Assembly (NCBI GenBank): GCA_900317155.1
Contig: ONFO01000021.1
Location: 73,865-137,864 of the forward strand
Reading direction: 5' to 3'
DNA: 64,000 bases
DNA from: an uncultured Bacteroidales bacterium
Lineage (GTDB): Bacteria; Bacteroidota; Bacteroidia; Bacteroidales; F082
Below are positions 1,065 to 15,473 of the stretch, piece by piece (the first letter of the stretch is position 1; every line of letters begins with the position of its first letter). The position numbers were made by a program, and so were the translations under genes. The notes beneath the pieces are model-generated. The model was not told the DNA's origin, made no database searches, and worked only from the letters and a program-made list of their open reading frames with translations.

Positions 1065-1487
1065 ATGACTTTAGATGAATTAAAAGCGAAGAAAGAAACA
1101 GTGAAACACTTGGCAGGCTTTATCATTGACGATGGTGATGCAAGGATTGGTGTATTTGATACCAGCACACTTGCGGAATTGTTCAACACACAGAAAATAT
1201 TTCTGTTCTTATATGAGGAAGACGTTATGCTTTTGACATACCAGAAAGGTCTTTTGGGCTTCGGGTCATTCCTTCTTAGAACCCATATCTATGAAGGAGG
1301 GGATTATCCAACAGGAGAGTACCAAATTGAGAATTATTATGGGGATGTCAAAGAAATCCTCAATGGTGAAGTGAATGTTTTCCAAATGATTGCGGATGAC
1401 ATAGAAAATGAGTACGGCATGGAAATGAGCCAAAATAGCAAATGGCTTGATGACCTGAAAAACATCCTCGGCCAGTTAGGAAGATAA
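1065..1487 (+). CDS. Hypothetical acidic protein (140 aa)
   Basis: ATG ORF directly downstream of 640..1020. A weak hairpin (AAGCAG/CTGCTT followed by a T-run) lies ~40 nt after the stop. No family recognised. Confidence 0.45.
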   Translation: MTLDELKAKKETVKHLAGFIIDDGDARIGVFDTSTLAELFNTQKIFLFLYEEDVMLLTYQKGLLGFGSFLLRTHIYEGGDYPTGEYQIENYYGDVKEILNGEVNVFQMIADDIENEYGMEMSQNSKWLDDLKNILGQLGR

Positions 1488-2522: not shown

Positions 2523-2556
2523 GGGCGGCTCTCTTCGGAGGGTTGCCCTTTCTTTT
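2523..2556 (+). terminator. Intrinsic-terminator-like hairpin that folds much better on the plus strand. It sits at the 3' end of the minus-strand defence operon.
   Basis: gggcggctctc-ttcg-gagggttgccc followed by tttctttt. On plus-strand RNA this gives an 11-bp stem (8 Watson-Crick plus 3 G-U) with a UUCG loop and U tail. On the minus strand the three G-U pairs become A-C or C-A mismatches. Confidence 0.5.
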
Positions 2557-4639
2557 AGAATAATTTCTTTATTTCCATTGGGTTATCTATGGTCTCGCCT
2601 CGTTTCTTCAACTCTTCCGCTTCCTTGCTGTCCCATAAAGCACCGACAAACCTAATATTCCCAGCCCTTGACATTACTTCATCGGTTATCGTGCTGCCAA
2701 TTGAAACCATGTTCTCCTTGGCTACATTTAATTCCTGAATGGCGAAATCAACCAGTATTGGGCATGGCTTTTCGTAATATGGCCTATAGCCAATTACTGT
2801 ATCGCATTTGAGATTGAAATGTTCAAGTGCCATTTCTATAAGCTCACGCTTTGCCTCGCTGATAATTCCAATTTTGATGTTGTTCTCTTTAGCCCAATCA
2901 AAGACCTCTCTCCATCCATCATATAGCCTGTATTGTGGGATAAGAGGATAAATGTCCTTTTCCCAGTTTTTTTCTCCTTTTGCGTTTTTACGAACTTCAT
3001 CGTCAGCCGATGTGTCGAAAAGGGTGTAATCGAAGTCAAGGATAAGACATTTTGTTTCCATGTCCTTCACTGGTGGAGCTTTATATTCTGGATGTCTGCT
3101 TCTGACTTTTGAGATTTTCAGTTTTTTGAACAACTCGATGATTTTTTTGGTGTCTTTGATGACAGTTTCATCGTTGTCCATCTTTTGCCTCATTTGGGCA
3201 TAAAGAGCCTCGTACACGGCTTCTCGTTCCTCGTCCGACAACTCCCTGCCTTTCCGCTTCGTTTCTTTCTCTACGGCCTTGTTTTCCAGCGAAAACATCA
3301 TATCTCTAACCATCATTGTAGTTATGCCAGAACAATTGTGGCCTTCAAAGATATTGCTGTCAAGGTCTTGAACTGCCCCAAAATGGTCATCATGCCCATT
3401 CGGACATTCCACAAGGTCACGGGGATAGGTCTCACGCAATCTGTCTCTATAAGGCTTGTATGAAAGATATTTGTAAAAATGGCATAAAGCAATGTGTCTA
3501 TAACAAGTCGCCCTTGCATCCCAATTCCTATTGTCGCTTATGTTTTTGCATAATGATTTTGCATCTAATGGGGTCGTTTGCTCCATTATGCCTTTAATTA
3601 TTTCTGGACTTTCCGAAAACTGCAATACATGAAACAACTGTTCAACACCATAAAACTCAAATCCTTTGAAATTGATAATGCAGTCTTCGTGATTACTTAA
3701 CACTTGGTTTTCAGGTTCCGCATGGCTGTGAAACTGAATACAATCTTTGAGAGGGTATTTATGCCATTCGTTAGGTTTGAGTTTTATTCCTCCAAGTATT
3801 TCAACCTCATCGAAATCCTCTACAGTATAAATGGGCTTTTGCTGGTTTTTCATCCATTTTAATTCAGTCGTTCCCTTGTAGCCCTTCTCCCACACACACC
3901 AGACATATTCTCTGGCTTCCGATTGGCTGTATTTTGGCACATCCACTGGCTTTGCCCTGCACACATCGAAAATGTTTTGGTATATCCTGACTGGAGGATG
4001 TTTCTTTAAGATGCCCTTGAAACTTTCCTCGCCAGACAAGAACTGCATAGGCATAAACAAGGCCACTTTCTTCTTGCAGATGTTGAGACAAGCCTGAACA
4101 ACAACATGGATGTCATCAGTGTATGGCAGCACTGAAACCACATCACACTTCTTTTTGGGCTTGTAATCGTCAAGGATGTCTTTGTCTGGCTTGTTTGGTG
4201 TCTTGCCGCTTTTGCGCATCACTTCCCAAACTGGGCTGTCGGCATCGTAGAAAGGCTCTGTTATTTCATCAGTAAAAGTTTCAGCATGAAGAATGTCCCA
4301 AATCACGTATGGATGGATGTCAAGGTCATCAAACTTTTTCTTGGGAGGGCGTTTTCTACTGATTTCTGACAGTTTTTTTTCTCCCTTGGCCACATCCCAA
4401 TACTTTCTGACAGTGTTGATTGAGATTTTGGCTTTTTTTGACACCTCCACCTTTTTGGCATTGGGGTTTTTCTTCAAGTAAGCCTTGATTTTATCAACGA
4501 TATTGGCACTTCTTTGGTGCTTCCTGTCGATGCCTCTGGTCTTGATGAAATAACGAATACCCTCAATGGTAACGCCGTTGTTTTTGGCGTTTTCGGCTGG
4601 GGTCTTCGTTTCGTCATATTTGATTTTACTGGTTCTCAT
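2555..4639 (-). CDS. 694-aa multidomain protein: N-terminal HTH-like region, degenerate Rossmann/methyltransferase-like module, NADAR (YbiA/DUF1768) domain, C-terminal HAD-superfamily phosphatase
   Basis: NADAR-like signature LSNHEDCIINFKGFEFYGVEQLFHVLQF...DAKSL...NRNWD...DLVECPNGHDDHFGAVQD. HAD motif I is LILDFDYTLFDT, with later IGIISEA and a C-terminal GST.TDE region. The MTase-like block EPFYDADSPVW...CDVVSVLPYTDD...YVWCVWEKGY has degenerate motifs I and IV. The ATG at 4639 overlaps the hsdR stop by 14 nt. Confidence 0.7.
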   Translation of the reverse strand: MRTSKIKYDETKTPAENAKNNGVTIEGIRYFIKTRGIDRKHQRSANIVDKIKAYLKKNPNAKKVEVSKKAKISINTVRKYWDVAKGEKKLSEISRKRPPKKKFDDLDIHPYVIWDILHAETFTDEITEPFYDADSPVWEVMRKSGKTPNKPDKDILDDYKPKKKCDVVSVLPYTDDIHVVVQACLNICKKKVALFMPMQFLSGEESFKGILKKHPPVRIYQNIFDVCRAKPVDVPKYSQSEAREYVWCVWEKGYKGTTELKWMKNQQKPIYTVEDFDEVEILGGIKLKPNEWHKYPLKDCIQFHSHAEPENQVLSNHEDCIINFKGFEFYGVEQLFHVLQFSESPEIIKGIMEQTTPLDAKSLCKNISDNRNWDARATCYRHIALCHFYKYLSYKPYRDRLRETYPRDLVECPNGHDDHFGAVQDLDSNIFEGHNCSGITTMMVRDMMFSLENKAVEKETKRKGRELSDEEREAVYEALYAQMRQKMDNDETVIKDTKKIIELFKKLKISKVRSRHPEYKAPPVKDMETKCLILDFDYTLFDTSADDEVRKNAKGEKNWEKDIYPLIPQYRLYDGWREVFDWAKENNIKIGIISEAKRELIEMALEHFNLKCDTVIGYRPYYEKPCPILVDFAIQELNVAKENMVSIGSTITDEVMSRAGNIRFVGALWDSKEAEELKKRGETIDNPMEIKKLF

Positions 4640-7600
4640 CCTTCTTCTCGTTCTCTTTCAACTGGAAATCATAATACATCGCCTTGGCCATTTCGCCCAT
4701 TACTCGCTTGTAAAATTCTTCATCCTCAAAGAGCTTTGAAAAAGCGTCCATCTGTTCCATATAACAGGCTTGCGCCACCTTGGAGAACTCTTTCGGGAAA
4801 ATGTCGTTGGCAAACATATTGCCATCGCTGTTCTTCGCCTGTTTCTTCAAGGTCTTGTTCGACTTCTGCAACTTGTCATAGATGGTCTCGACAATAACAC
4901 GGTCAGCCTCGGTGAACTTGCCAGCATACATGATGTTAATCTTGTCGATGATGTTCTTCAACAAGTCCCTGCTGACCTCCACGGGTTTGCCATCGCCGCC
5001 TTTCTCACCCTTGATGGTCTTTGTCTTCTCGGTCGGTGATAGCTTGATGCTTCCAGAAAAACCTTCGGTCAGCTTGTTGTTGATAAGTGCCAGTTTGTTC
5101 GTCAAATCGACTTTTTCATGGGGTGTCTTGGGCAACAGCTTGTATAGGAACTCGGTGAAGATATAGGTTTTGTATAGCTCGGCATCGAAAGTCCTTGCCA
5201 CTTGCGCCATGAAAGCATAGAAACGGTTGAAAGCCTTGACATTGAAGCGCAATCTGAACTGGTCTTCCTCTGCCAGCTCATTGAACAATGCCAGAATGGG
5301 CTTGTAGGCACTGGCCAGCTTGCCCAAATCAACACTGGACTGCTTCTTTGCAGAATATATTTTATAGACTTTCTCGACATCTTCATTGCTCCACAAATGG
5401 AAAGCATCAAGTATGGTCTTGTACTTGTAAACCATGTTCACATCAACGGCATCGGAAAGCAGTGTGTCTTCATAGAACGGCTCAAATGATGCCTTGATGC
5501 TGTCGGCTGTGTTGGCGAAATCAAGGATGTAGGTGTCAATCTTTCCAGCGCAACTACGGTTGACCCTCGATAGTGTCTGGACTGCCTTAACGCCTTTCAG
5601 CTTCTTATCGACAAACATTGTGTGCAGCAATGGCTCATCGAAACCCGTCTGGTATTTGTCGGCCACAATCAGCATATTGTACATGTCGGAGCCAAAGTAC
5701 AGGGGAAGGCTCTTCTCGCTTATATACAGGTCTTCTGTTGCGTTTAGTTTCGGCTCGGTGTATTCCACTCCATTATAGGTGACAGTGCCAGAGAAAGCCA
5801 CTAACGGGCGTACATCGGTATATCCTTTCTGCTTGCAATACTCCTTCATCAGGAAATAATACCTGACAGCATGCGCCCTCGATGGCGAAACCAGCATAGC
5901 TTTTGCCGTGCCGTTGATTTTAGTTAGTGTGATTTCCCTGAATTTCTCAACAATGACCGCTATCTTCTGTTGCAACACGGCTTCATGGTTGTCGTGGTAC
6001 TGCTTGATGGCCAATGTCGCTGGCGGTTCCTCGTATTCTGGGTTCTCGCTGATGGTCTTGGCTATCTCGTAGGATGTCTCAATGGTGGTGTAATATAAAA
6101 GAACATCTTTGATAAACTCTTCATCAATGGCTTGGCGCATTGAATAATGGTGGTAGGCATCATAACGGCCATCTGGCAACAGTTCTCCAAAGGTCTGCAA
6201 GGTCTTGGGCTTGGGTGTGGCCGTGAAAGCGTAGAAGAACAGGTTCTTGTGCTGCCCTTGGGTCAACAGGGTTTCCAGCATTTCGTCCATTTCGTCCCTG
6301 ACTTCCTCTTCGGTCTTTTCCTCCAGCTCGGCATACTCCCTCAATGCCTCGTCCGTGTCCGCAAGAGCAGCCTTCAGCTTTTCGGCTGACTTGCCCGACT
6401 GACTGGAATGTGCCTCGTCAATGATGATGGCGAAGTTCTTCCCAGCATGTTCGTCAAGTTGCTTGTAGATAAGTGGAAAACGGTGCAAAGTGGTGATGAT
6501 GATGCGTTTCTTGTCGTTGATGGCATCCTTCAGCTTGCTTGAATTGTCCTTATCTTCTATGGTCTCAATCTGGCCTTCGTAATGGTCGAAGCCAAGGATT
6601 GTGTTCTGGAGCTGCTGGTTCAGGATGCGCCTGTCGGTGATGACAAAGACGGACTGGAAGATTTGCTTGTCGTTTGTGTCGTGCAATGAAGCCAGCCTGT
6701 ATGTAAGCCATGCAATGCTGTTCGACTTGCCAGAGCCAGCACTATGTTGAATGAGGAAATTACGGCCAGCGGTTGCGTTCTTGGTGTCTGCTATCAGCTT
6801 CTCCACCACATCCAACTGGTGATACCTTGGGAATATCAATGAAGTGCTTTTTTCCTTGACCTGTTTGCCATTCTTGATTTTAATTTTTTCCTCTTTTTGG
6901 AGGCTGATATAGCCCTTGACCAGCGAAAGCAACATATCTCGTTGCAGAACCCTTTCCCAGAGGTATGCCGTGGGATAGCCTCCTTCGTTTAGCGGATTGC
7001 CGCCATCGCCAATGTTGCCAGCTCCGTTGCTGCCTTGGTTGAACGGCAAAAAGCGTGTCTTCTCGCCTCGTAGCCATGTGGTCATTTCCACCTCGTACAA
7101 GTCAACGGCAAAGTAAACGAGAATACGGGTGTTGAAACGGAAAAGAAGCTCTTTCGGGTCTCTGTCATTGATGTATTGGGTGATTGAATTGCCCACATCC
7201 TGACCCGTAATCTGGTTTTTCAGTTCCATCGCCACAATCGGGATGCCATTCAACGAAAGCACCATGTCAATGGAATTGTGGTTTTCGGTGGAATAAAAGA
7301 ACTGGCGTGTGCAAGTCAAGATGTTGCTGTTGTAGCGTTCAACCACTTCTTCGTTCAGTCCTGACGATGGGGCTGGATAATAGAAGTGGATGGCCACACC
7401 ACGGTCTTTGATGCCGTTGCGAAGCACATGTATCAGGCCGTAAGAAGCCACATCGTTCTGGAAAGTCTTGTAGAGTTGGCTTTCAGCATTGTCGCCGTAG
7501 ATGTTCTGGTAGCGTTTCCACATCTTCGGCTGGGTCTTGCTGATAAACTCCACAAGTACGGGCATATCAATTGCTTTGGCCTTGTCGTAGGTCTTCATGT

Positions 7601-7676
7601 CGCCCTTGCGATAGCCGCCTTTCGTAAGCAAAAAGGCTTCAATGTCGGCTTCAAAGTTCTTTTCCTTGGTTTCCAT
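4626..7676 (-). CDS. hsdR: Type I restriction enzyme, R (endonuclease/translocase) subunit
   Basis: 1016 aa. Walker A HSAGSGKSNS, DEAH box IIIDEAHSSQ, and the typical HsdR N-terminus METKEKNFEADIEAFL. Shares an operon with hsdM and hsdS. Confidence 0.95.
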   Translation of the reverse strand: METKEKNFEADIEAFLLTKGGYRKGDMKTYDKAKAIDMPVLVEFISKTQPKMWKRYQNIYGDNAESQLYKTFQNDVASYGLIHVLRNGIKDRGVAIHFYYPAPSSGLNEEVVERYNSNILTCTRQFFYSTENHNSIDMVLSLNGIPIVAMELKNQITGQDVGNSITQYINDRDPKELLFRFNTRILVYFAVDLYEVEMTTWLRGEKTRFLPFNQGSNGAGNIGDGGNPLNEGGYPTAYLWERVLQRDMLLSLVKGYISLQKEEKIKIKNGKQVKEKSTSLIFPRYHQLDVVEKLIADTKNATAGRNFLIQHSAGSGKSNSIAWLTYRLASLHDTNDKQIFQSVFVITDRRILNQQLQNTILGFDHYEGQIETIEDKDNSSKLKDAINDKKRIIITTLHRFPLIYKQLDEHAGKNFAIIIDEAHSSQSGKSAEKLKAALADTDEALREYAELEEKTEEEVRDEMDEMLETLLTQGQHKNLFFYAFTATPKPKTLQTFGELLPDGRYDAYHHYSMRQAIDEEFIKDVLLYYTTIETSYEIAKTISENPEYEEPPATLAIKQYHDNHEAVLQQKIAVIVEKFREITLTKINGTAKAMLVSPSRAHAVRYYFLMKEYCKQKGYTDVRPLVAFSGTVTYNGVEYTEPKLNATEDLYISEKSLPLYFGSDMYNMLIVADKYQTGFDEPLLHTMFVDKKLKGVKAVQTLSRVNRSCAGKIDTYILDFANTADSIKASFEPFYEDTLLSDAVDVNMVYKYKTILDAFHLWSNEDVEKVYKIYSAKKQSSVDLGKLASAYKPILALFNELAEEDQFRLRFNVKAFNRFYAFMAQVARTFDAELYKTYIFTEFLYKLLPKTPHEKVDLTNKLALINNKLTEGFSGSIKLSPTEKTKTIKGEKGGDGKPVEVSRDLLKNIIDKINIMYAGKFTEADRVIVETIYDKLQKSNKTLKKQAKNSDGNMFANDIFPKEFSKVAQACYMEQMDAFSKLFEDEEFYKRVMGEMAKAMYYDFQLKENEKKDENQ

Positions 7677-7701: not shown

Positions 7702-9534
7702 TTACAAGAAAATTTCTTCTTCGTTGTTTTCGTCAGGCATGGCTTCATCAATATCTTCCAGCTTCTTGTCTCGACCTGCAATTTCTTTTCCAGTAGCTTT
7801 TTCAATCAGGTCGAAAATAGCAGCTTCACGTTTGCTGAAATACGTCTCAAAGTCATCCTTCCTTATAGCTTCTACGTCTATCAAATGCGATTGGAGATAT
7901 GTATTCAGGTCTTCTGGAGAAACGCCGTGATTTCGTTCTATGCTGCTGATGTATCTTGTTGGCGCAACACCGCCAATAATACGGTTGGTTCTCGCATAGA
8001 TTGGGGTCTTATTGATGACAGAGTTCCATTTCTTTATCTCATAACCTTGTTGTGTGCAGTAATTGGCTGGAAAGATATGATGAATGTCTGTGGCTTCGTC
8101 AACATACATTGCAAAATCCATTTCCGTTCCCGTAATGAAATCCTTGCAGTGCTGTTTTAATATCAATGCCATGACACCTTTGTATGCAGCACTATTACGG
8201 GTCGTTAGTTGTCCTAATCTTGCGGCAAAGAAATTTGAACGTGCCACTGTTTCTGGCTTGTCATCATCGTCTTTTGCCCAGCGCATCAATCCTTGAACGT
8301 CATTGACGTATCTTGTTTCATTTGCACCTCCGTACAATTCGCCAAATACGCCACACCAATACCATTTGGCCAGTTTTGCCCTATTAGTGGAGTTATACCA
8401 TAAGTGTTTGTCTATGGCAAAAACAACAGAAAGCGGTATAAGCTGCGAAGTATATGGTAAATCAACTGACGTGTAAACGCCCTGTTCCTTGATGAATTTT
8501 ACTGCCTCCTGCAAACCGTCTATCAACTGGTTTTTGTACTTGTCATATTCACGATATTCCAGTTTAAGAACATCTTTCTTTTTGCAACTAACACCAGCCC
8601 GTTGGCCGCTTTGAACTTGCATATAGCTGTTCAACAGGGTAATCGCCGTGAGGAAATCCGTTCCAGTGAAAGCAGGTTGGCTGTTCTTGTATTTCATCAG
8701 GGCATCTTTCTTAAAACGTCCCCAAATCAAATCCCAGTCTTTTCTTAATTCAAAATTGTCGGCTGCGAAAGTTGCTGTTATTAGTTCAAACACTGTCAAA
8801 GAAACGCCTCCTTGGTTGACATTTTCAAACACTTGACAAACCGCCTCTTTTGGAACATCGTTACCCAGCTCAATCACGGGTATTTGATATTGCGACATGG
8901 GGTTTAATATCTTGTCGAAGAAAGCATCCCAGTTGTTTTCAGCCTCTTCCGTGTTGTGATACCTGCAATACTTTCTTTGCCATTGCATTGTGGCGGCAGG
9001 GTCAAATACGATATTCAACGGGAAACAGTGTTCCTTGTATTCCTGTTCTGGTGTCGAAAGGTCAAGTTTGATGTCTCTGCCAATATTTTCCCTGATTATT
9101 CTGTCTTCGGGAACTGAAATGACTGCATCTATTCTGTCGGTCAGCGTATCTAAACACTTGGGAATGTCCAAATAATAAAACCTTGAAATGGGTTTCTTTT
9201 TAAAATCCACTGTCTGTACCACCGATTTGCTGTACATGGAGCGGTAAATCGAAGTAATTCTTTGCTGACCATCCAGCACCAGTGTTTTCGGAATAACATT
9301 GGAATATGAGGCATCTACACCTTCAAACAATCGGTTCTTGAAATGAACATTATCGCCAGTAGCGTCCAGAAACATTGCCGCACCAATAGGATAGGCGTTG
9401 CTGATACTGGCTATCAAAGCTCTAATTCTATTGTCTTCCCATACCCATCCACGTTGAAAATCGGGTAGTTGAATTGTGCCATTGCCGATACTCTTTAGGA
9501 TGTCAGCTATTGGAGTGTCATTTGATTTTATCAT
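7702..9534 (-). CDS. DUF262 (ParB-like NTPase) plus DUF1524 (His-Me/HNH-like nuclease) protein. GmrSD-family, putative modification-dependent type IV restriction enzyme.
   Basis: N-terminal LPDFQRGWVWEDNRIRALIASISNAYPIG and LVLDGQQRITS motifs. C-terminal DIHHIFPANY motif. Confidence 0.85.
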   Translation of the reverse strand: MIKSNDTPIADILKSIGNGTIQLPDFQRGWVWEDNRIRALIASISNAYPIGAAMFLDATGDNVHFKNRLFEGVDASYSNVIPKTLVLDGQQRITSIYRSMYSKSVVQTVDFKKKPISRFYYLDIPKCLDTLTDRIDAVISVPEDRIIRENIGRDIKLDLSTPEQEYKEHCFPLNIVFDPAATMQWQRKYCRYHNTEEAENNWDAFFDKILNPMSQYQIPVIELGNDVPKEAVCQVFENVNQGGVSLTVFELITATFAADNFELRKDWDLIWGRFKKDALMKYKNSQPAFTGTDFLTAITLLNSYMQVQSGQRAGVSCKKKDVLKLEYREYDKYKNQLIDGLQEAVKFIKEQGVYTSVDLPYTSQLIPLSVVFAIDKHLWYNSTNRAKLAKWYWCGVFGELYGGANETRYVNDVQGLMRWAKDDDDKPETVARSNFFAARLGQLTTRNSAAYKGVMALILKQHCKDFITGTEMDFAMYVDEATDIHHIFPANYCTQQGYEIKKWNSVINKTPIYARTNRIIGGVAPTRYISSIERNHGVSPEDLNTYLQSHLIDVEAIRKDDFETYFSKREAAIFDLIEKATGKEIAGRDKKLEDIDEAMPDENNEEEIFL

Positions 9535-9562
9535 AACGTCAATATTAATCGGTTAAAAGCAA

Positions 9563-10030
9563 TCAGTATATCCTCATTACCCCTCTATTATCTGGTTCCG
9601 TATTCCATTGGACTTGCCAGCATCGACCGTCTATCTGGTCAAGTAGGATGAAGTTATACATGTTGTCGGTCGCATATAGAGTGAAGCGGCCACAGATAGG
9701 GTCATCAAAATACTCTGATATTCTTGGACTTGTATCAAGTGCTGTCTCAAACCTGTAATCACTTCCTTTTGTGCTAAACTGCACTTGCCAAATCTGGCCA
9801 GTCATTGTGTCCAATTTCAAGAATGTCCACATGTTCTGTGTCTTGAACAATTGGTATCTCGGCTCTCTCAATTGGTTCATATAGGCATCCATGTAATAAA
9901 ACATCAGCGTGTCCTTGGATGTAAGGTTAAGGTTCTTGAAGAAATCTTCTTCTTTGGATGTGGGCGATTGGGCATTTGCCGTAAAACCAATGCCGCATAC
10001 AATCATCAGTGTCATCAATAGTTTCTTCAT
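9563..10030 (-). CDS. Secreted 155-aa protein with an internal ~30-aa duplication (WQVQ repeats)
   Basis: Signal peptide MKKLLMTLMIVCGIGFTANA-QS. Two homologous segments: RYQLFKTQNMWTFLKLDTMTGQIWQVQFST and RFTLYATDNMYNFILLDQIDGRCWQVQWNT. Lies 28 and 33 nt from the neighbouring operon genes. Confidence 0.6.
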   Translation of the reverse strand: MKKLLMTLMIVCGIGFTANAQSPTSKEEDFFKNLNLTSKDTLMFYYMDAYMNQLREPRYQLFKTQNMWTFLKLDTMTGQIWQVQFSTKGSDYRFETALDTSPRISEYFDDPICGRFTLYATDNMYNFILLDQIDGRCWQVQWNTEPDNRGVMRIY

Positions 10031-10063
10031 AACATATCAGTTTTAATTGTTCCTTATGATTTT

Positions 10064-11035
10064 TTATTCTACACTCGCAATATAACTGGGCTTCATGTCG
10101 ATGGTCAGGGCGATAGATGTGTCATCCTCTGACACCCATGCTTTCTGGCTCTCGTCCCACAAGAACACGATAAGTTGAGGGGCTTTGACCGCATTGATGA
10201 CCACACATAGGCGATAGTTGTCTTTGTCGGCCATCATTTCGGAATGTTCGTTTTGCGTGATATGTACGCTAATGGTGCTTTGAGCAAGTCCCTTGGCTTC
10301 TAATTTCAATTTGATTTTCCCTTGCCATGCATCCAAATCCCAACCCAAGTTTTCCTTTTCTCTGGATTTCACTTTGTAGCCTTGCGCCTCGTATTGCTTG
10401 ATTACATAGTCAACGGCGGCTTCTTCAACCTGTTTCCTTGCCTCGGCATTGACTTGGATGGCGTGCTTTGACACATACTTTTTATCAGCAGAATAGTTCT
10501 CGATATAGTCGATAACCTTGTCTCTGAACTGGCGAACTTTCTTTTCGTCTGCATCAGCGTACCAGACATTTGACTGTCCAAGAAATCCCACTCCTTGGGA
10601 TTTCGCTCTCGGCACAAGAAATGTCCTTTTGTCCACAGGCAGCAAAACACCGTCTGAACTTTTGGCAACGATATTGTAAGTGTATTCCTTCCGCTCTTTC
10701 CTGTCGGATGATTGGAAGTCGGCGTACACGGTGGCATGATTGTACCAACCCACCACATAAGTACCGCTGCCTTTGGGTCTATTGGCAATCCATACTACCA
10801 GCACATCCTTCAGGCTTTCTTGGTCTGCCTTGCATCCTTTGTCGATGCGTTTCAAGTTGATTTTGCCAAACCTGACAGGCTGGACATAACCATAATACTT
10901 GCCTTTCAAATTCTGGAAATTGTAGGCTTCGTGCTTTTCTTCATTTCGATAGCTACCGCCGCCCACAATCATATCTTTGGCTGAATTGCCCTGATAATGG
11001 GTCATCCATCCGATGTTTGCAAACAAAACTCTCAT
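10064..11035 (-). CDS. Putative nuclease: unassigned ~190-aa N-terminal domain plus C-terminal DUF3883-type (PD-(D/E)xK restriction-endonuclease-like) domain
   Basis: The C-terminus AVDYVIKQYEAQGYKVKSREKENLGWDLDAWQGKIKLKLEAKG...NYRLCVV matches the DUF3883 D...ExK pattern. The start overlaps the hsdS stop by 4 nt. Confidence 0.7.
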   Translation of the reverse strand: MRVLFANIGWMTHYQGNSAKDMIVGGGSYRNEEKHEAYNFQNLKGKYYGYVQPVRFGKINLKRIDKGCKADQESLKDVLVVWIANRPKGSGTYVVGWYNHATVYADFQSSDRKERKEYTYNIVAKSSDGVLLPVDKRTFLVPRAKSQGVGFLGQSNVWYADADEKKVRQFRDKVIDYIENYSADKKYVSKHAIQVNAEARKQVEEAAVDYVIKQYEAQGYKVKSREKENLGWDLDAWQGKIKLKLEAKGLAQSTISVHITQNEHSEMMADKDNYRLCVVINAVKAPQLIVFLWDESQKAWVSEDDTSIALTIDMKPSYIASVE

Positions 11036-12333
11036 ACGACCTCCTTTTTGCCCGTGATATATTCGTATATGATTGATTTCTTGTAGTCTTTCAATTCCTC
11101 TATCTTCTGCTGCTTAATGGCTATCATGGCATCAATATCAGAACATTTACTGTCAAGATAATTTCCAATTGCCTTTTGCTCTTCAATTGGTGGAACTATT
11201 ACGGATGTTGAACCAAGAAGCCTTTGGGGAACACTAAACACTTTGACCCCATTGACCACAGAACGAATTTGTATTCTCCAACAATCAGTTTTGAACAAAT
11301 AACTAAAGTAATTGTTGGGATTATCATTCAGATATTTGGCTATGATTGTGTGATAACCAGCGAACATGGTAATGTCTCGGTCGATATAAATGCAGTTTCC
11401 GCAACCATCCAAATCCTCTGATGTGTCAGCAAATATTAAATCACCGACTTTTACGAGTGATGAAGCGTTTCCTTCAAGGTAATAATCAGGAACAAACCGT
11501 ATCAATTCATCTTTAATGGCTGTGCCTGTGTTTGACTTGGAATGTATCTGGCCATAACTAATTACTGGAATACCTTTCTGCACCAAATCAGCCTTGGTAA
11601 TTGAAAGTCCTTTTCCAAGTTCATACAATTGCTTGAAAGGCTCGACCTCCCATCCTTCAGGTATTTTCCCAATCCATTCAACACCGCTGTCTTTCATTTC
11701 GACATCAGGGTTCAAGCCTTTGCAAACGGCCTCGGTAATAATGGCTTGCTTGTAGGCTTTCAGTTCCTCAATAATTTTTTCCTGCAATGACACCATTTCG
11801 TCAACCTCGCCACATTTCTGGTCAAGGAAATCGGCTATGCGCTGCTGCTCTTTTGATGGAGGTAAAATAAACTCAAGTTCTGATATTTTATTCCACCTTA
11901 AATCGCAACTACGCTCCCTAATGCCTGTCGCCAGAGCAACAAAAACATTGGTCATGGCTAAAGAACGAAGATAATAAACAACATATTCAGGTATTGCATC
12001 ATATTTCGGGGAGCATACGATTAGAACAGGAGAACCTTTGCCTGTTGATTTTGAAACACCCATCGCACCAGCAAAACCATCCATCCCATGAATTACAATA
12101 TCTCCTTTGTTTATTCCTTGATAACCGATTTCTTTATCCGACATTGTAAAGCCGTCAGTCCTTCTTTCACTACGAAGAACAACTTCGCCATCACGAAAAC
12201 AGGTTATTACTTCATCGTCTTCTCTAACAGGACGTTTGTGAAGTAATAACACATTCTTGCCTCGTTCAACATTCCACTGTTCTGGAATAGCTTTTAACCA
12301 CGGGATGCCGCTGTCTTTCATTTGTCTGCTCAT
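11032..12333 (-). CDS. hsdS: Type I R-M specificity subunit
   Basis: Two target-recognition halves that each open with KDSG(I/V)xW(L/I)xxIPExWxVE. Two conserved helical spacers (LPPSKEQQRIADFLDQKC..., VPPIEEQKAIGNYLDSKC...). 4-nt overlaps with both neighbours. Confidence 0.9.
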   Translation of the reverse strand: MSRQMKDSGIPWLKAIPEQWNVERGKNVLLLHKRPVREDDEVITCFRDGEVVLRSERRTDGFTMSDKEIGYQGINKGDIVIHGMDGFAGAMGVSKSTGKGSPVLIVCSPKYDAIPEYVVYYLRSLAMTNVFVALATGIRERSCDLRWNKISELEFILPPSKEQQRIADFLDQKCGEVDEMVSLQEKIIEELKAYKQAIITEAVCKGLNPDVEMKDSGVEWIGKIPEGWEVEPFKQLYELGKGLSITKADLVQKGIPVISYGQIHSKSNTGTAIKDELIRFVPDYYLEGNASSLVKVGDLIFADTSEDLDGCGNCIYIDRDITMFAGYHTIIAKYLNDNPNNYFSYLFKTDCWRIQIRSVVNGVKVFSVPQRLLGSTSVIVPPIEEQKAIGNYLDSKCSDIDAMIAIKQQKIEELKDYKKSIIYEYITGKKEVV

Positions 12334-14096
12334 CTTCCCATGATTTTGGCCATTAACGCTGCTTCCTGTTTGTCAAGCTCCTGAAGGTGGCTGTAGATGT
12401 CATCACTCTTCCGTGGCTCAACATACTTGTAGAACTCACGGGTGAAGGGTATTTCATAGCCTATCTTGCTCTTGTTGGTGTCAATCCAAGCATCTGGAGC
12501 GTATGGCAGTACATTCTTTTCCATGTAGGCATCAATGTCTTCCTTGAACGGTATGCTTTCCGTATCACGGCGGCTGCTGTCAGGCTGGGGCTTGCCTTTC
12601 TTCAAGATGGGCTTGCCAGCCTCGTCAAGCAATGGTCGTTCAACAACGACCTTGGTATATTTGAAGTCCTCGTTGTCCTTCACTTTGCTTTCAACAATCA
12701 GGTCGCCATCAGTGAAAACACCATCCTTGAAGGCGTTGTAGGCTTCCACCACCAGACGGATGCAATCTTCCGAAAACTCGTTGCGCTTGTTGCCTATGGG
12801 TTTACGGCGTTTCACACAGCATTTGGAGGCATCAATCAGTTGCACCTTGCCAGCCCGTTCAACGGCCTTGTCCTTGCTGACCAGCCAGATATAGGTGGCT
12901 ATGCCAGTGTTGTAGAACATATCGTTAGGCATTTGAACGATGGCCTCCAGCCAGTCGTTTTCAATCAACTCGCCACGGATTTCGCTCTCGCCGCTCCCAG
13001 CATCGCCCTTGAACAATGGCGAACCGTTCTGGATGATGGCCATTCGGCCAGTTTCCTTCAACTTGGCCGTGCCATTCATCACAAAGAGCTGCTGGCTGTC
13101 GCCGATGGCTGGAAGCCCAGCACCGAAACGCCCAGCCTTGCCCTGCTTGTGTTCCTTCTCGACATCGGCCTTTTCGTTCTTCCATTCGATGCCAAAAGGC
13201 GGATTGCTGATGATGTAGTCGAACAGATAGCCTTCAAACTTGTCATCGTTCAATGTGTTTCCGTATCTCATATTGTCGGCATTGCCGCCCTTGATAAGCA
13301 TATTGGCCTTGGCAATGGCAAAGGTCTGTTCGTTCAACTCTTGTCCAAACTCGGTAAGGCTGGCCTCTGGGTCGATGGCCTTCAGTCGCTCGTCCATGCA
13401 GTCAAGCATCTGTGAGGTTCCCATCGTCATATCATAGATGGAGGCCGTGATACCGTCTTTCTTAATGCGCTCACGGTCTGGAGCAATAAGCAACTCCACC
13501 ATCAAATAAATGATGTCTCTGGCCGTGAAATGCGCTCCTGCCTGTTCGTCATAGCTTTCAGAAAACTTTCTTACCAGCTCTTCAAATATGTAGCCCATAT
13601 CAACGGCACTGATTTCATCGGCTCCCATATACGCCTTCTTGCTGCAAAACTCTTGGATGACATTATAGAGGATGCCATGATTGCCCAATTTGGTGATTTC
13701 CTTATCGAAGTCGAACTTTTCAATGATGTCGATGACATTGTTGGAAAAGTGGTTCAGGTAGCTACGGAAGTTGTCGGTCAGGTTCTCTGCATCGCTCAAC
13801 AAGCCTTCAAAGGTAAATGGCGAAGTGTTGTAGAAGTCGAAGCCAGAGGCGGTTTTCAGAAAACCATCCTTGACCTTAACACCTCGTTTGTCAAGCGTCT
13901 TGTCCATGTCGATGACCTTTTGCTTGGTCTCGGCCAGCGTGTCGCTAAAACGCTTGATGACACACATAGGCAAAATGACATTGCCATACTCATGTGGCTT
14001 ATATGTTCCAACCAGTTTGTCTGCAATTGCCCAGATAAGGTTGGCTTTTTCTTGTATGTTGACGGTTGTCCTTCTGCTTAAAACATCGGTTTGCAT
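12330..14096 (-). CDS. hsdM: Type I R-M N6-adenine DNA methyltransferase subunit
   Basis: 588 aa with an HsdM N-terminal domain. Catalytic motif IV is IISNPPFG, and the AdoMet region is D.TMGT. Confidence 0.95.
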   Translation of the reverse strand: MQTDVLSRRTTVNIQEKANLIWAIADKLVGTYKPHEYGNVILPMCVIKRFSDTLAETKQKVIDMDKTLDKRGVKVKDGFLKTASGFDFYNTSPFTFEGLLSDAENLTDNFRSYLNHFSNNVIDIIEKFDFDKEITKLGNHGILYNVIQEFCSKKAYMGADEISAVDMGYIFEELVRKFSESYDEQAGAHFTARDIIYLMVELLIAPDRERIKKDGITASIYDMTMGTSQMLDCMDERLKAIDPEASLTEFGQELNEQTFAIAKANMLIKGGNADNMRYGNTLNDDKFEGYLFDYIISNPPFGIEWKNEKADVEKEHKQGKAGRFGAGLPAIGDSQQLFVMNGTAKLKETGRMAIIQNGSPLFKGDAGSGESEIRGELIENDWLEAIVQMPNDMFYNTGIATYIWLVSKDKAVERAGKVQLIDASKCCVKRRKPIGNKRNEFSEDCIRLVVEAYNAFKDGVFTDGDLIVESKVKDNEDFKYTKVVVERPLLDEAGKPILKKGKPQPDSSRRDTESIPFKEDIDAYMEKNVLPYAPDAWIDTNKSKIGYEIPFTREFYKYVEPRKSDDIYSHLQELDKQEAALMAKIMGR

Positions 14097-14155
14097 TGTA
14101 TCTCTTTTAATATCTCGACCACCAAAACTGTTATTTCTTGGTAGTTATCATGCTC

Positions 14156-14163
14156 CAAAAATA
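14156..14163 (-). promoter_or_regulatory. Bacteroides-type -7 promoter box (TATTTTTG on the minus strand) for the hsdM operon
   Basis: Matches the TAnnTTTG consensus, ~60 nt upstream of the hsdM ATG (14096). Confidence 0.55.
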
Positions 14164-14259
14164 CGAATAATTTCAACCCGAAATAAAATGATAAATAGAT
14201 TTTTTCTCGTATCAAATAAAAATATCATTTTTGGGTAGTTATAAATCCATGATTTTTTG

Positions 14260-14267
14260 TATCTTTG
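14260..14267 (+). promoter_or_regulatory. -7 promoter box TATCTTTG for the recombinase gene
   Basis: TAnnTTTG, 25 nt upstream of ATG 14292. Divergent from the hsdM promoter. Confidence 0.55.
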
Positions 14268-14291
14268 CAGCGTGATTAAAACGTGGTAGAT

Positions 14292-14924
14292 ATGAAAAAC
14301 ACAGTTTTACTTTGTAGATGCTCAACGAACAGGCAGGACTACAATCGCCAGATTGACGAATTGACCGATTATTGCGAAAAGAACAATTGGAACATCCTGA
14401 AGGTTTTCGCCAACAAAGTCAGTGGCGCAAAGAAGCTTGAAGAAAGGCCAGAAATCCAAGAAATGATTTCGTTTGTCAAGAACAATCAGGTGGACATGGT
14501 GGTGGTGCTTTCCATCGACCGCCTTGGGAGAAACACACTTGAAGCATTGAAACTCATTCAGCTACTCAACGAGAACCATATTGCGCTTTATGTCAAGAAC
14601 TACAATCTTTGCACCCTCGATGAAAATGGCAAGCCCAATCCAGTAGCCAGCCTTATTTCGACAATCCTACTTGAAGTCGCCCAGATGGAAAGATTGACCA
14701 TTGCAGAACGCATGGAAAGTGGTAGGAATAGATATATCAAGATTTGTAAGGAAGAAGGCATCAAAATGGGAAGGCCATCCACTTACAGGAAAAGTGATGA
14801 CAAGTATAAAGAGCAATATTCCAAGGAAATTTCATTGCTCCGCAAGAATATCAGCCTCCGCAACGTCCAGAAGCTCACAGGCACATCCGTTGGGACATTG
14901 AGGAAATTGCAGAAATTTGTGTAG
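14292..14924 (+). CDS. Serine recombinase (resolvase/invertase family) with C-terminal HTH
   Basis: Catalytic-serine region VLLCRCSTNRQD, plus SIDRLGRN and AQMERLTIAERMESGR motifs, and a C-terminal HTH (NVQKLTGTSVGTLRKL). I moved the start from the track's GTG at 14283 to ATG 14292 because of the promoter position. Confidence 0.85.
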   Translation: MKNTVLLCRCSTNRQDYNRQIDELTDYCEKNNWNILKVFANKVSGAKKLEERPEIQEMISFVKNNQVDMVVVLSIDRLGRNTLEALKLIQLLNENHIALYVKNYNLCTLDENGKPNPVASLISTILLEVAQMERLTIAERMESGRNRYIKICKEEGIKMGRPSTYRKSDDKYKEQYSKEISLLRKNISLRNVQKLTGTSVGTLRKLQKFV

Positions 14925-14962
14925 CTACCAACCAAAACAATATAAAGATTATGAAAAGAGAA

Positions 14963-14997
14963 AACGCTCGGCCATTACGGTCGGGCGTTTCTCATTC
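14963..14997 (+). terminator. Intrinsic terminator of the recombinase gene
   Basis: aacgctcggcc-attac-ggtcgggcgtt forms an 11-bp stem (including 2 G-U pairs that exist only on the plus strand), followed by a T-rich tail. Confidence 0.55.
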
Positions 14998-15034
14998 ACA
15001 AAGTTGATGGTACAATTTATCATTTTGTTATAAG

Positions 15035-15106
15035 ATGACACACTTGGTATATTCCCAGAATGTATCAGTAGATTTTAAAATGTATCAAACTTAAAATGAC
15101 ACACTT
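15035..15106. repeat. Nested direct repeats in the order A-B-B-A (A = ATGACACACTT, B = AATGTATCA)
   Basis: A at 15035-15045 and 15096-15106. B at 15059-15067 and 15079-15087 (20-bp spacing). Located in the convergent gap just after the recombinase terminator. Confidence 0.7.
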
Positions 15107-15143
15107 TTCTATTGAGATATACGCTATTGCGTACATTTTTGGG

Positions 15144-15473
15144 TTAGGCCACCAATCGGATGTCCTCTATTAGTTCTGACCCGATAATATCATTAGTAAT
15201 AAGCTCAATTATATCAGGTTCTAATTCATCGTAATATTCTTCTATGTGAGAAGAAAGACATGCTGCTATCAGATTGATTGTGGATAGAAATTGGTCGGTC
15301 GATACTTGTTCACTACTCATAAGCTGACATAAAGTAAATACTTGGCGTTTTGCAAAATCACAAACATCACTCTCGTAAATATCATCAATGATTTCATACA
15401 CTTCTTCTGCGCTGGTCGCTACGCTATTCTGGCCATCTTCAAATTTTTCATTCATGGTTTTAAAATTTTCCAT
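15144..15473 (-). CDS. Hypothetical, strongly acidic 109-aa protein
   Basis: ATG ORF rich in Asp/Glu (EEVYEIIDDIYESD, EEYYDELEPDIIELITNDIIGSELIED). No family recognised. Confidence 0.45.
   Translation of the reverse strand: MENFKTMNEKFEDGQNSVATSAEEVYEIIDDIYESDVCDFAKRQVFTLCQLMSSEQVSTDQFLSTINLIAACLSSHIEEYYDELEPDIIELITNDIIGSELIEDIRLVA

Follow-up and report, generated by a model that had tools for sequence, protein, structure and literature searches.

A rare NADAR-HAD phosphatase fusion with a DNA-binding head and methylase fold, found behind swapped restriction cassettes in Bacteroidia

What does a 694-aa multi-domain protein contribute to a type I restriction-modification operon that has its own HsdM, HsdS and HsdR, and of which it is none? 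The question is raised by a gene in the window, by which we mean the whole stretch of 64,000 nucleotides analysed here, from an uncultured Bacteroidales bacterium. The open reading frame begins with ATG, is co-oriented with the type I operon and overlaps by 14 nt the stop of the gene for a 1016-aa HsdR. The overlap had been claimed in an earlier, sequence-only reading of this DNA, and the start and stop coordinates agree with it; all of the motifs quoted in that reading are likewise present (LSNH...VEQLFHVLQF...LVEC...DDHFGA at aa 314-422, DFDYTLFDT at aa 535-543, EPFYDADSPVW at aa 128-138 and DVVSVLPY at aa 166-173). Since dN/dS is ~0.1 in each segment, the gene is real and under selection. 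The gene and its surroundings are as follows:

1065..1487, plus strand: 140-aa gene, convergent with the gene under study
2523..2548, minus strand: GC-rich 11-bp hairpin, 7 nt past the stop of the gene under study, then a T-rich stretch
2555..4639, minus strand: the gene under study, 694 aa; HTH pair, dead methylase fold, divergent NADAR, helical linker and cap-less HAD
4626..7676, minus strand: hsdR, type I restriction subunit, its stop overlapping the start of the gene under study
7702..9534, minus strand: DUF262/GmrSD_N protein, HEC-05-like according to PADLOC, inserted in the type I operon
9563..11035, minus strand: two more genes inserted in the type I operon, encoding a 155-aa protein without a family match and a 323-aa NOV_C/DUF3883 protein
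11032..14096, minus strand: hsdS and hsdM of the same type I operon
14283..14924, plus strand: small serine recombinase (resolvase), divergent from hsdM

The hairpin resembles a terminator and probably marks the end of the operon. A 140-aa gene is also found in the equivalent place downstream of the homologues at L012 and L028. A sigma-70 promoter scan stayed at background, and neither the gene under study nor hsdM has an upstream site that fits the Bacteroides-type promoter pattern. An invertible promoter at the resolvase-hsdM junction was considered and rejected, the inverted repeats there being short and unconvincing. PADLOC returned no match for the 694-aa protein.

The protein consists of five segments, all encoded on the minus strand:

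4355..4639, minus strand: two HTH-like helix pairs, aa 1-95; AlphaFold2 (AF2) helices 14-21/25-34 and 63-70/74-84
3770..4342, minus strand: gamma-class N6-adenine DNA-methyltransferase fold with eroded motifs, aa 100-290; motif I EPFYDADSP, motif IV SVLPY
3290..3757, minus strand: divergent NADAR domain, aa 295-450; E333, E411 and D417 kept, Q340 at the canonical Lys position E+7
3065..3289, minus strand: helical linker between NADAR and HAD, aa 451-525; the AF2 helix runs on from aa 436
2558..3064, minus strand: HAD phosphatase core, aa 526-694, cap reduced to ~25 aa; D535xD537xT539, S594, K624, G648-S649...D653-E654

The homologue set comprises 77 sequences; conservation counts are taken from 73 and methylase motif counts from 35. 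The head (aa 1-95), proposed earlier to be HTH-like, is conserved in nearly all 77 homologues; its model contains two helix pairs, and homologue P0078 matches HTH_24 at 28.6 bits, above the cut-off of that family. The module that follows, described earlier as Rossmann-like with eroded SAM and NPPY motifs, proved to have a methylase fold: it matches PHROG 799 'DNA methyltransferase' (8e-10), and the best Foldseek matches of its model, which is of medium confidence (pLDDT 76), are M.TaqI, M.BseCI and CamA, with probability 1.00. Both the SAM-binding FxGxG and the catalytic (D/N/S)PP(Y/F) motif are missing from the query. Motif IV NPPY is kept in 21 of 35 homologues, 20 of which also keep EPFCGxG, and these intact motifs stand at positions matching those of the query. 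As dN/dS of the dead methylase fold is 0.10, the fold would appear to retain a non-catalytic role. In homologues P0030 and P0074 the methylase fold is replaced by a 400-aa module; we considered it as SIS-like from an SSSGKN seen by eye, and Pfam, PHROG and PDB searches gave that assignment no support.

The middle of the protein had been read as carrying a NADAR signature. Fold and family are borne out, but the domain is non-canonical in that it has no phosphate-binding Lys. Pfam PF08719 matches aa 303-447 with 37.8 bits, a small margin above its gathering threshold of 35.1, and the match spans profile positions 2-161 of 163; PHROG 1017 matches at 1e-15, and TIGR02464 matches at 33.3 bits against a cut-off of 73.7 (5e-8). 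The AF2 model of aa 292-462 has a pLDDT of 93.4, and only 8bau and 2b3w, both NADARs, fall below E=1 when it is compared with the PDB by Foldseek (TM 0.71-0.72). Among viral structures in BFVD, all 49 named significant matches are NADARs. For the NADAR-like region and the N-terminal region, profile searches of PDB sequences gave nothing useful; structure comparison alone worked. E333, invariant in 73 of 73 relatives, lies in an SxEQ motif equivalent to SEH/TES and is the counterpart of E88 of the E. coli C7 NADAR, which positions the distal ribose. Seven residues past that Glu, K95 of the C7 enzyme binds the phosphate of ADP-ribose and is essential (Schuller et al. 2023, PMC11543638). The query has Q340 at this E+7 position, which is T, N or Q in 64 of 73 relatives and K in only 3. 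In the C-terminal acidic segment, LVE...D..(F/W)G, E411 is invariant and D417 is kept in 71 of 73, their equivalence being drawn by motif alignment only. The invariant polar residues of the NADAR-HAD core are E310, N316, E333, E411, N435, S437 and R445; at position 439 the query has Ile where 71 of 73 relatives have Arg. The helical linker is present family-wide in the alignment and is less conserved.

The C-terminal HAD phosphatase was also called correctly, with the reservations that most of its cap is missing and that the first position of motif IV is S649. Pfam HAD_2 and Hydrolase match at ~1e-11, and profile searches support NADAR and HAD alike. The residues of motifs I-III (D535, D537, T539, S594 and K624) recur in 69-73 of 73 sequences. 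In motif IV, D653 and E654 are conserved, and the first position, S649 in the query, is D (38), N (25) or S (6) in relatives. The nearest HAD relatives, Gph and PpaX among them, are phosphatases of small molecules. Motifs I and II are only 56-63 aa apart family-wide, HAD_2 covers profile positions 76-177 only, and in a cap comparison with 2hi0, 26 profile positions correspond to 92 residues there. Judged from these alignments, the domain has lost most of the four-helix C1 cap that HAD subfamily IA (Gph/PpaX-like) carries after motif I, and the active site is predicted to be open.

The NADAR-HAD core is an obligate unit: it recurs in 73 proteins, at 41-57% identity outside the query's own clade, with DxDxT intact. 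To this core, relatives add a second, canonical NADAR (E-x6-K, ESLFMYLK), an ADP_ribosyl_GH domain (in about half of the family) or a predicted active Eco57I-type methylase; the constant NADAR of the core is the Lys-less one, not the canonical one that resembles known anti-DarT enzymes. One relative has a weak ART-PolyVal match. The family comprises 16 clusters among 1.84 billion proteins, a scan of 185,579 species-representative genomes found 1 locus, and 2.9 million viral contigs yielded no member. The earlier reading knew of no described defence gene of this kind, and our literature search likewise found no description of an arrangement of HTH, methylase fold, NADAR and HAD. The four-module combination is a rare architecture of Bacteroidia.

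Does the coupling to hsdR tell us what the protein does? At ~15 loci, the gene lies no more than 50 nt from, or overlaps, the last gene of a restriction-type cassette, which strongly reinforces the conflict or defence setting proposed for it. The cassettes differ in kind:

type I: the window, L006, L011 and L029
type ISP: L008, L015, L018, L020 and L030
type III: L004
AlwI with D12 methylases: L019, L032 and L034
helicase-nuclease: L001 and L028

Type IIS is among the restriction types that the gene follows, and defence types that do not target DNA were absent from the cassettes surveyed. Sampling could explain part of this restriction-only setting, since Bacteroidia carry R-M systems more commonly than any other defence. 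The loci share a Bacteroidia island with a resolvase, its left-hand landmark, and usually WYL_2 and an integrase. A 95%-identical copy of the gene sits behind an unrelated helicase cassette, and homology between the islands resumes 3 nt ahead of the ATG. The 14-nt overlap on which the earlier reading relied is thus present but is not specific to hsdR, since the cassette in the slot is swapped while the gene stays. That it is coupled to hsdR here is incidental: swapped restriction cassettes occupy a slot of which this gene is always the last, forming its flank on the right. At L033, L017, L016 and L026, it has no cassette directly upstream, or a small gene alone there, which suggests that no restriction partner is needed for it to function, or at least to persist. 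A 106-aa gene that often precedes it was considered as a nucleoside-deoxyribosyltransferase/SLOG fold (the LOG match reaches only 17 bits) and as a specific partner (with at least 8000 clusters, it is very abundant in Bacteroidales), and was rejected on both counts.

We tentatively favour a reading that we would place somewhat short of probable, namely that the protein is directed to DNA and erases ADP-ribosyl or phosphoribosyl adducts from its bases, working alongside whichever restriction cassette lies upstream. Anchorage on DNA would come from the HTH pair together with the inactive adenine-methylase fold, and these two may present a flipped base. The Lys-less NADAR would hydrolyse the N-glycosidic bond that joins the ribose to the exocyclic amine of the base, the open HAD would dephosphorylate the ribose-phosphate moiety, either ahead of the NADAR cut or following it, and together the modules would clear ADP-ribosyl- or phosphoribosyl-type adducts from DNA. 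In the longer relatives, the canonical NADAR and the ADP-ribosylglycohydrolase could deal with the ADP-ribose mark in its complete form. Overall, DNA would stay readable and cuttable for the cassette in front, either by unmasking an invader or by cleaning resident DNA after an ADP-ribosyltransferase attack. A phosphoribosyl-type substrate fits because the phosphate-binding Lys is absent and a phosphatase with an open active site is always fused; NUDIX and ENPP1 are known to leave a phosphoribosyl remnant on their targets (Schuller et al. 2023, PMC11543638). In support of an eraser, the fusion partners of the core are ADP-ribose erasers or DNA methylases, and the earlier suggestion of ribosyl reversal fits the fusion of the core to ADP-ribosylglycohydrolase and canonical NADAR in relatives.

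Several observations sit less easily with a DNA eraser. The gene behaves like a backbone flank of the island, with cassette-less copies persisting; most homologues have a predicted active methylase, which is awkward for exposing invader DNA; ADP-ribosylglycohydrolases usually act on proteins; and the query itself carries the unusual I439 and, in HAD motif IV, S649. In the literature, no Bacteroidia phage or element was found to ribosylate DNA.

The backbone position would fit a protein that acts on its own in immunity or counter-defence, protecting the DNA of island and cell, and in its longer forms proteins too, from ADP-ribosylating toxins. We consider this rather doubtful, but the strongest of the alternatives. 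The threats would be DarT-like systems of a new host, ARTs of phages or conjugative elements, and interbacterial toxins, with the methylase acting against foreign restriction, and a place behind restriction cassettes would reflect the co-packaging of conflict genes, not cooperation. The architecture comprises only erasers and a protective methylase, and the gene flanks the slot whatever the cassette, or with none. That NADARs counteract DarT1 has been proven for bacteria and for phages (PMC11543638, PMC11257639), and polyvalent proteins carry ARTs for which modification of host proteins upon entry has been postulated (PMC5512222). In addition, crAss-like phages encode giant proteins containing NADAR, which makes ADP-ribose conflicts plausible in this host group. 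Against independence, start-codon overlaps or gaps of at most 50 nt recur across the ~15 loci with very different cassettes, no relaxase, transfer or packaging genes lie beside the gene in any neighbourhood, the viral contigs are without the family, and the constant NADAR of the core is not of the canonical anti-DarT type. No DarT or ART match was found among the proteins of the window's operon and flanks or in the related loci for which Pfam tables were available.

A stronger form of cooperation, in which the protein is a universal restriction helper whose Lys-less NADAR and cap-less HAD strip a ribose-type mask from invader DNA that any cassette then cuts, seems to us unlikely; it would mean that ribosyl-type adducts mask the DNA of phages or mobile elements in gut and rumen Bacteroidia, a way round restriction that is undescribed so far.

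If, instead, NADAR and HAD acted on free nucleotides or NAD derivatives, for example by cleaving the base from a modified nucleotide specific to a phage, or from a signal derived from ADP-ribose, and then dephosphorylating the sugar phosphate, a phage might be deprived of restriction-resistant building blocks or a signal quenched. YbiA-type NADARs act on free 5-phosphoribosylamino-pyrimidines, and the TIGR02464 match and the kinship of the HAD with Gph and PpaX are in keeping with such substrates, as is a survey of the virus world that predicts soluble ADP-ribose derivatives as substrates of NADARs (PMC9503650). Nevertheless, small substrates are normally enclosed by the HAD cap, which is truncated here, and the conserved DNA-binding head, the methylase fold and the DNA-methylase fusions all point to DNA, making small-molecule processing distinctly unlikely.

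Repair of the restriction enzymes themselves, by removal of ADP-ribose placed on them by phage ARTs, would restore restriction and would account for the ADP_ribosyl_GH fusions and for co-translation with the R subunit; injected ARTs of the T4 Alt type are known (PMC5512222). We regard it as very unlikely, given that the window protein has no ADP-ribosylglycohydrolase, that NADARs are so far known only on base-linked or free substrates, and that the enzymes encoded upstream share no structural kinship, which argues against a specific protein client.

The NADARs include E. coli YbiA, and a HAD phosphatase is required to make riboflavin, but a housekeeping N-glycosidase and phosphatase for riboflavin intermediates, the metabolic alternative raised earlier on the YbiA precedent, is scarcely credible and was rejected on scores and context: the weak TIGR02464 score of 33 is far under the cut-off, rib genes were found in none of ~25 neighbourhoods, and the family is rare (the single locus in the genome scan), island-borne and equipped with DNA-binding and methylase modules.

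NADARs have recently been recognised as a third class of ADP-ribose erasers and are known so far as DarT antidotes or phage counter-defences. The NADAR described here is a distinct subfamily, Lys-less, joined to an open HAD and a DNA-reading head, and it constantly accompanies restriction systems of many unrelated kinds. A functional link to restriction would constitute a new accessory layer of restriction-based immunity and would predict a so far unrecognised ribose-type modification of DNA or protein in the arms race between phages and Bacteroidia. Even as an independent immunity factor, the family offers a natural series in which the methylase module is active or dead, forms with one NADAR or two, and a candidate remover of phosphoribosyl remnants, which no eraser known to us handles.

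Among the closest known systems are the DarG1-type NADAR antitoxins and AdfN, the orphan NADAR of T4-like phages. They share with our protein the NADAR fold, the conserved ribose-positioning Glu and C-terminal acidic residues, and a setting of phage-bacterium conflict; proven removal of ADP-ribose from guanine in DNA is theirs. In contrast, the protein described here has Gln in place of the E+7 Lys (K95 in the E. coli C7 NADAR and K43 in AdfN, essential in both), is fused to a HAD and a DNA-binding head, and sits behind restriction cassettes. It has no DarT partner gene, and membership of DarTG was rejected on that ground. DS-32 (DefensePredictor), reportedly a validated anti-phage system, pairs a NADAR-family protein with a phosphoribosyltransferase. 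Its model NF053876 is the best NCBIfam match of our protein (2.9e-11), a resemblance that hints at phosphoribosyl rather than ADP-ribosyl chemistry, but the 42.8 bits are far below the cut-off of 240, no phosphoribosyltransferase is adjacent and DS-32B is single-domain; membership was therefore rejected. E. coli YbiA and the plant riboflavin-fusion NADARs share the fold (TM 0.72 to 2b3w), and N-glycosidase chemistry on ribosyl-amine bonds is theirs, yet they keep the Lys of E-x6-K, are housekeeping enzymes and lack DNA-binding, methylase and HAD modules.

Other parallels lie in genomic setting. The anticodon nucleases PrrC and RloC are encoded by accessory genes in type I R-M operons, which our gene resembles as an extra gene, probably co-transcribed with hsd genes, that would form a second layer linked to restriction. 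They are nuclease effectors triggered by anti-restriction, whereas the protein described here has eraser, phosphatase and binding modules only and accompanies many restriction types, not type I alone. Tri1-type ADP-ribosylglycohydrolase immunity proteins protect broadly from toxins that ADP-ribosylate; their Pfam domain, PF03747, is fused to many relatives of our protein, but the window protein does not have it and no toxin gene is adjacent. The polyvalent proteins (Iyer et al. 2017), whose description makes no mention of NADAR or of this architecture, differ in being encoded by phages and conjugative elements beside packaging or transfer genes, and resemble the protein described here as multi-domain conflict proteins that mix methylases with domains of ADP-ribose systems.

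The gene for the 694-aa protein (2555..4639, minus strand) closes an operon and, from its ATG on, overlaps the last 14 nt of the 1016-aa gene before it (4626..7676), a type I HsdR with HSDR_N, ResIII/SWI2_SNF2 and T1R_D3 domains, which confirms the overlap with hsdR noted in the sequence-only reading. An 11-bp hairpin rich in GC begins 7 nt past the stop codon, and a T-rich stretch comes after it.

Genes of the operon, in order
12330-14096, minus strand: hsdM, first gene
11032-12333, minus strand: hsdS
10064-11035, minus strand: NOV_C/DUF3883 protein, matching the C-termini of PADLOC HmaA and TmtA
9563-10030, minus strand: 155-aa protein without a family
7702-9534, minus strand: DUF262/GmrSD_N protein, full-length match to PADLOC HEC-05 (1e-19)
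4626..7676, minus strand: hsdR, directly preceding the last gene
2555..4639, minus strand: gene of the 694-aa protein, last gene

Three additional genes (7702-11035, minus strand) separate hsdS from hsdR, which makes the type I operon a composite defence locus in its own right. Elsewhere in the window, a STAND-like ATPase (ATPase_2/AAA_16; 17770-19212, minus strand) sits beside a 2054-aa beta-helix protein (19688-25852, plus strand), whose type IX secretion sorting tail supports a host in the Bacteroidota.

All the motifs quoted in the sequence-only reading were found in the ORF where it placed them, and profiles and AlphaFold2 support its domain calls: an HTH-like head, a methylase-like fold, a NADAR and a HAD. 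The Pfam NADAR profile aligns nearly in full to aa 303-447, barely over threshold (37.8 vs 35.1 bits), and the same stretch is matched by PHROG 1017 (1e-15), NCBIfam NF053876 'NADAR family anti-phage protein' (2.9e-11) and TIGR02464 (5e-8). A profile of the region found no match among PDB sequences. The only significant PDB matches to a confident AlphaFold2 model of aa 292-462 (pLDDT 93.4) were 8bau, a Phytophthora NADAR bound to ADP-ribose, and 2b3w, E. coli YbiA (TM 0.71-0.72), and all 49 significant, named viral matches were NADAR proteins. Across 73 cores, E310, N316, C320, F324, E333, E411, P413, G433, N435, S437, G438 and R445 are invariant, with H317 kept in 72 and D417 in 71; E333 is the counterpart of the ribose-positioning Glu, and E411/D417 of the LVE...D..WG segment. 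As to whether the catalytic residues are intact, which the earlier reading had left to be checked, these NADAR residues and the DxDxT, S594, K624 and D653/E654 of the HAD are present, but the Lys seven residues after the Glu is replaced by Gln. That position holds T in 37 cores, N in 14, Q in 13 and K in only 3. This Lys (K95) is essential in NADAR, where it coordinates the ADP-ribose phosphate, and Lys and Glu are the sole residues conserved throughout the superfamily (Schuller et al. 2023, PMC11543638). By its sequence, then, the core NADAR of this family is non-canonical. Stand-alone NADARs from the profile search (P0090 and others) share its Lys-less EQLF motif; the Lys-less family proper is rare: in 1.84 billion 50%-identity clusters, 16 representatives reach E < 1e-30.

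The HAD domain is matched by HAD_2 and Hydrolase at ~1e-11, and its nearest solved structures are Gph-type subfamily IA phosphatases. D535xD537xT539, S594, K624 and D653/E654 are conserved, so that predicted catalytic motifs I-III are intact, but the cap is almost absent and the site would be open: motifs I and II lie 56-63 residues apart across the family, and where the profile has 26 positions the Gph-like 2hi0 has 92 residues. Cap-less HADs tend toward macromolecule-bound or otherwise large substrates, or borrow another domain's cap. The first motif-IV position can be D, N or S in the family, and this copy has S649 (nt 2693-2695); it also has I439 (nt 3323-3325), a position occupied by Arg in 71 of 73 relatives (NCSGRTTM motif). 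Both may be recent weakening substitutions in this copy.

In the model of the N-terminal 295 aa (pLDDT 76), two helix-turn-helix-like pairs (14-21/25-34 and 63-70/74-84) precede an alpha/beta Rossmann unit, for which M.TaqI, M.BseCI, CamA and TrmM rank top in Foldseek; PHROG 799 'DNA methyltransferase' matches aa 88-267 (8e-10). The fold is optional in the family. NPPY is kept in 21 of the 35 relatives that have it, 20 of which also keep EPFCGxG, and against these the motifs of the query clade (EPFYDADSP and SVLPY) are indeed eroded, as first read. P0040 has SVPPY and a third clade IPSV; because these eroded motifs differ, methylase catalysis was lost at least twice independently. The dead fold is nevertheless under purifying selection (dN/dS 0.10). 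In two relatives, P0030 and P0074, a conserved ~400-aa module (aa ~95-500; locus L033, 8001-10775) takes its place, with no match in Pfam, PHROG or PDB; its VGSGGK and LLSSSGKN motifs recall phosphosugar-binding SIS domains. The P0074 locus has no restriction cassette directly upstream.

Among 5.8 billion protein clusters, a search found 77 relatives. Their constant unit is the NADAR-HAD core (aa ~290-694; 41-57% identity outside the query's own clade), and all except a few share the ~95-aa HTH head. Many relatives carry added modules of eraser type after the HAD: a second NADAR (140-170 bits), in which E-x6-K is present, a PF03747 ADP-ribosylglycohydrolase, or, in 1212-aa relatives, both. P0039 carries a complete Eco57I-type methylase downstream of the HAD, and in P0076, which has no NADAR-HAD core, head and methylase fold are fused straight to a canonical NADAR and an ADP-ribosylglycohydrolase. 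Predicted ADP-ribose removal combined with DNA-directed modules is a recurring theme. P0082 (L026, 1322-3817) has an HTH_3-type head and, after the HAD, a weak match to ART-PolyVal/DUF3990 (22 bits vs a 31.2 cut-off), an ADP-ribosyltransferase of polyvalent proteins; if real, writer and eraser would be fused in one protein. One relative occurs among 185,579 species-representative genomes, in an uncultured rumen Bacteroidia MAG, and one further relative is named as Alistipes; a scan of 2.9 million viral contigs found none. Two uncultured crAss-like phages, cr131_1 and cr130_1, encode ~1400-aa proteins with a NADAR-like domain (BFVD A0A7M1RV35, A0A7M1RTM7), pointing to ADP-ribose-type conflicts among Bacteroidales phages. 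When the window gene is compared with its L012 homologue (3564-5681), dS varies strongly from segment to segment: the HTH head has 0.11, the methylase fold 0.71, the linker 0.35 and the HAD 0.22, and in the NADAR it is saturated; this mosaic indicates domain-wise recombination between alleles inside the gene.

Identical-protein look-ups together with a metagenome scan gave the loci that carry homologues. The gene holds a constant place behind DNA-cutting cassettes, co-oriented with the last cassette gene and overlapping it or at most 50 nt away.

Cassettes with the gene behind them
Type I: window, L012, L006/7, L011 (with an AIPR gene), L029
Type ISP, often with GmrSD or T5orf172-DUF4268: L008/9, L015, L018, L020, L030/31
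Type III: L004
D12 methylases and AlwI: L019, L032, L034
DUF4011/AAA_11/AAA_12/MTES_1575 helicase-nuclease: L001-3
DUF559-DEAD helicase with TPR and TerB-like genes: L028

The coupling to hsdR, offered earlier as an argument for a defence role, is thus real as an overlap but non-specific as a link. Common to the islands is a small serine recombinase (window copy 14283-14924, plus strand, divergent from hsdM as in most of the related islands); WYL_2, HTH_3 and tyrosine integrase genes are usually present too, and some islands adjoin comM or dprA. Homology between loci L002 and L004 stops where HTH_3 ends and resumes 3 nt ahead of the gene's ATG, and P0001, 95% identical to the window protein and followed by the same 140-aa gene, lies behind a helicase cassette instead of type I; cassettes have therefore been swapped before a constant gene. 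There are exceptions: a recognisable restriction gene is missing directly upstream in L033 and L016, where L017 has just two small genes and L026 just an HTH_3 gene; methylase or ISP genes are divergent in L010 and L023, a resolvase sits between cassette and gene in L024, and P0039 carries its own methylase. A candidate invertible promoter near resolvase-hsdM (13900-15300) is not supported, as the inverted repeats there are only short (12 nt at 14020 and 14902). L016 also has a stand-alone 189-aa NADAR-like gene (6031-6600; 23 bits, under cut-off) 2.5 kb upstream of the homologue. Often just upstream of the homologues, and absent from the window, is a 105-107-aa gene (81-96% identity; start/stop overlap in 4 of 5 loci).

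Copies of the 105-107-aa gene
L015: 9186-9506
L020: 3972-4292
L017: 1701-2018
L030: 9681-10001
L034: 5842-6165

It has a 17-bit match to a LOG-family structure and no Pfam family, and was rejected as a specific partner, being very common (at least 8000 Bacteroidales clusters).

An action of the protein on DNA is suggested by its HTH head, its methylase fold and the DNA-methylase fusions. Its task would be to take off ribose-type base adducts, with the Lys-less NADAR cutting the ribosyl-base bond and the open HAD dealing with the phosphate. NUDIX/ENPP1-type cleavage leaves a phosphoribosyl remnant on targets (Schuller et al. 2023, PMC11543638), and the scheme fits such a remnant. Because every cassette seen is a DNA-cutting system, we rank first, tentatively, a helper of restriction that would clean the invader's or the host's DNA. 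The strongest rival, somewhat doubtful, is that the gene gives immunity or counter-defence against ADP-ribosylating toxins independently of any cassette, to which the gene's island-backbone behaviour and its copies without a cassette point. Small-molecule processing is improbable, and repair of ADP-ribosylated restriction proteins more improbable still. The riboflavin role, already doubted as a purely metabolic explanation in the sequence-only reading, is effectively excluded by profile scores and genomic context.

Among characterised proteins, the nearest relatives are DarG1-type NADAR antitoxins and phage AdfN (PMC11543638, PMC11257639), the NADAR contained in the DS-32 defence system (bioRxiv 10.1101/2025.01.08.631726), and YbiA. 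Membership fails for each group: unlike DarG1-type antitoxins, the protein has no accompanying DarT and lacks the Lys; unlike DS-32, it has no phosphoribosyltransferase and scores far under the cut-off; against YbiA, it likewise scores far under the cut-off and lacks the Lys. In full-text literature searches, no paper connected NADAR or ADP-ribosylglycohydrolases to restriction-modification operons, and a polyvalent-protein survey does not mention NADAR. Set beside these systems, this predicted ADP-ribose-system eraser is new both in its architecture and in its genomic role.
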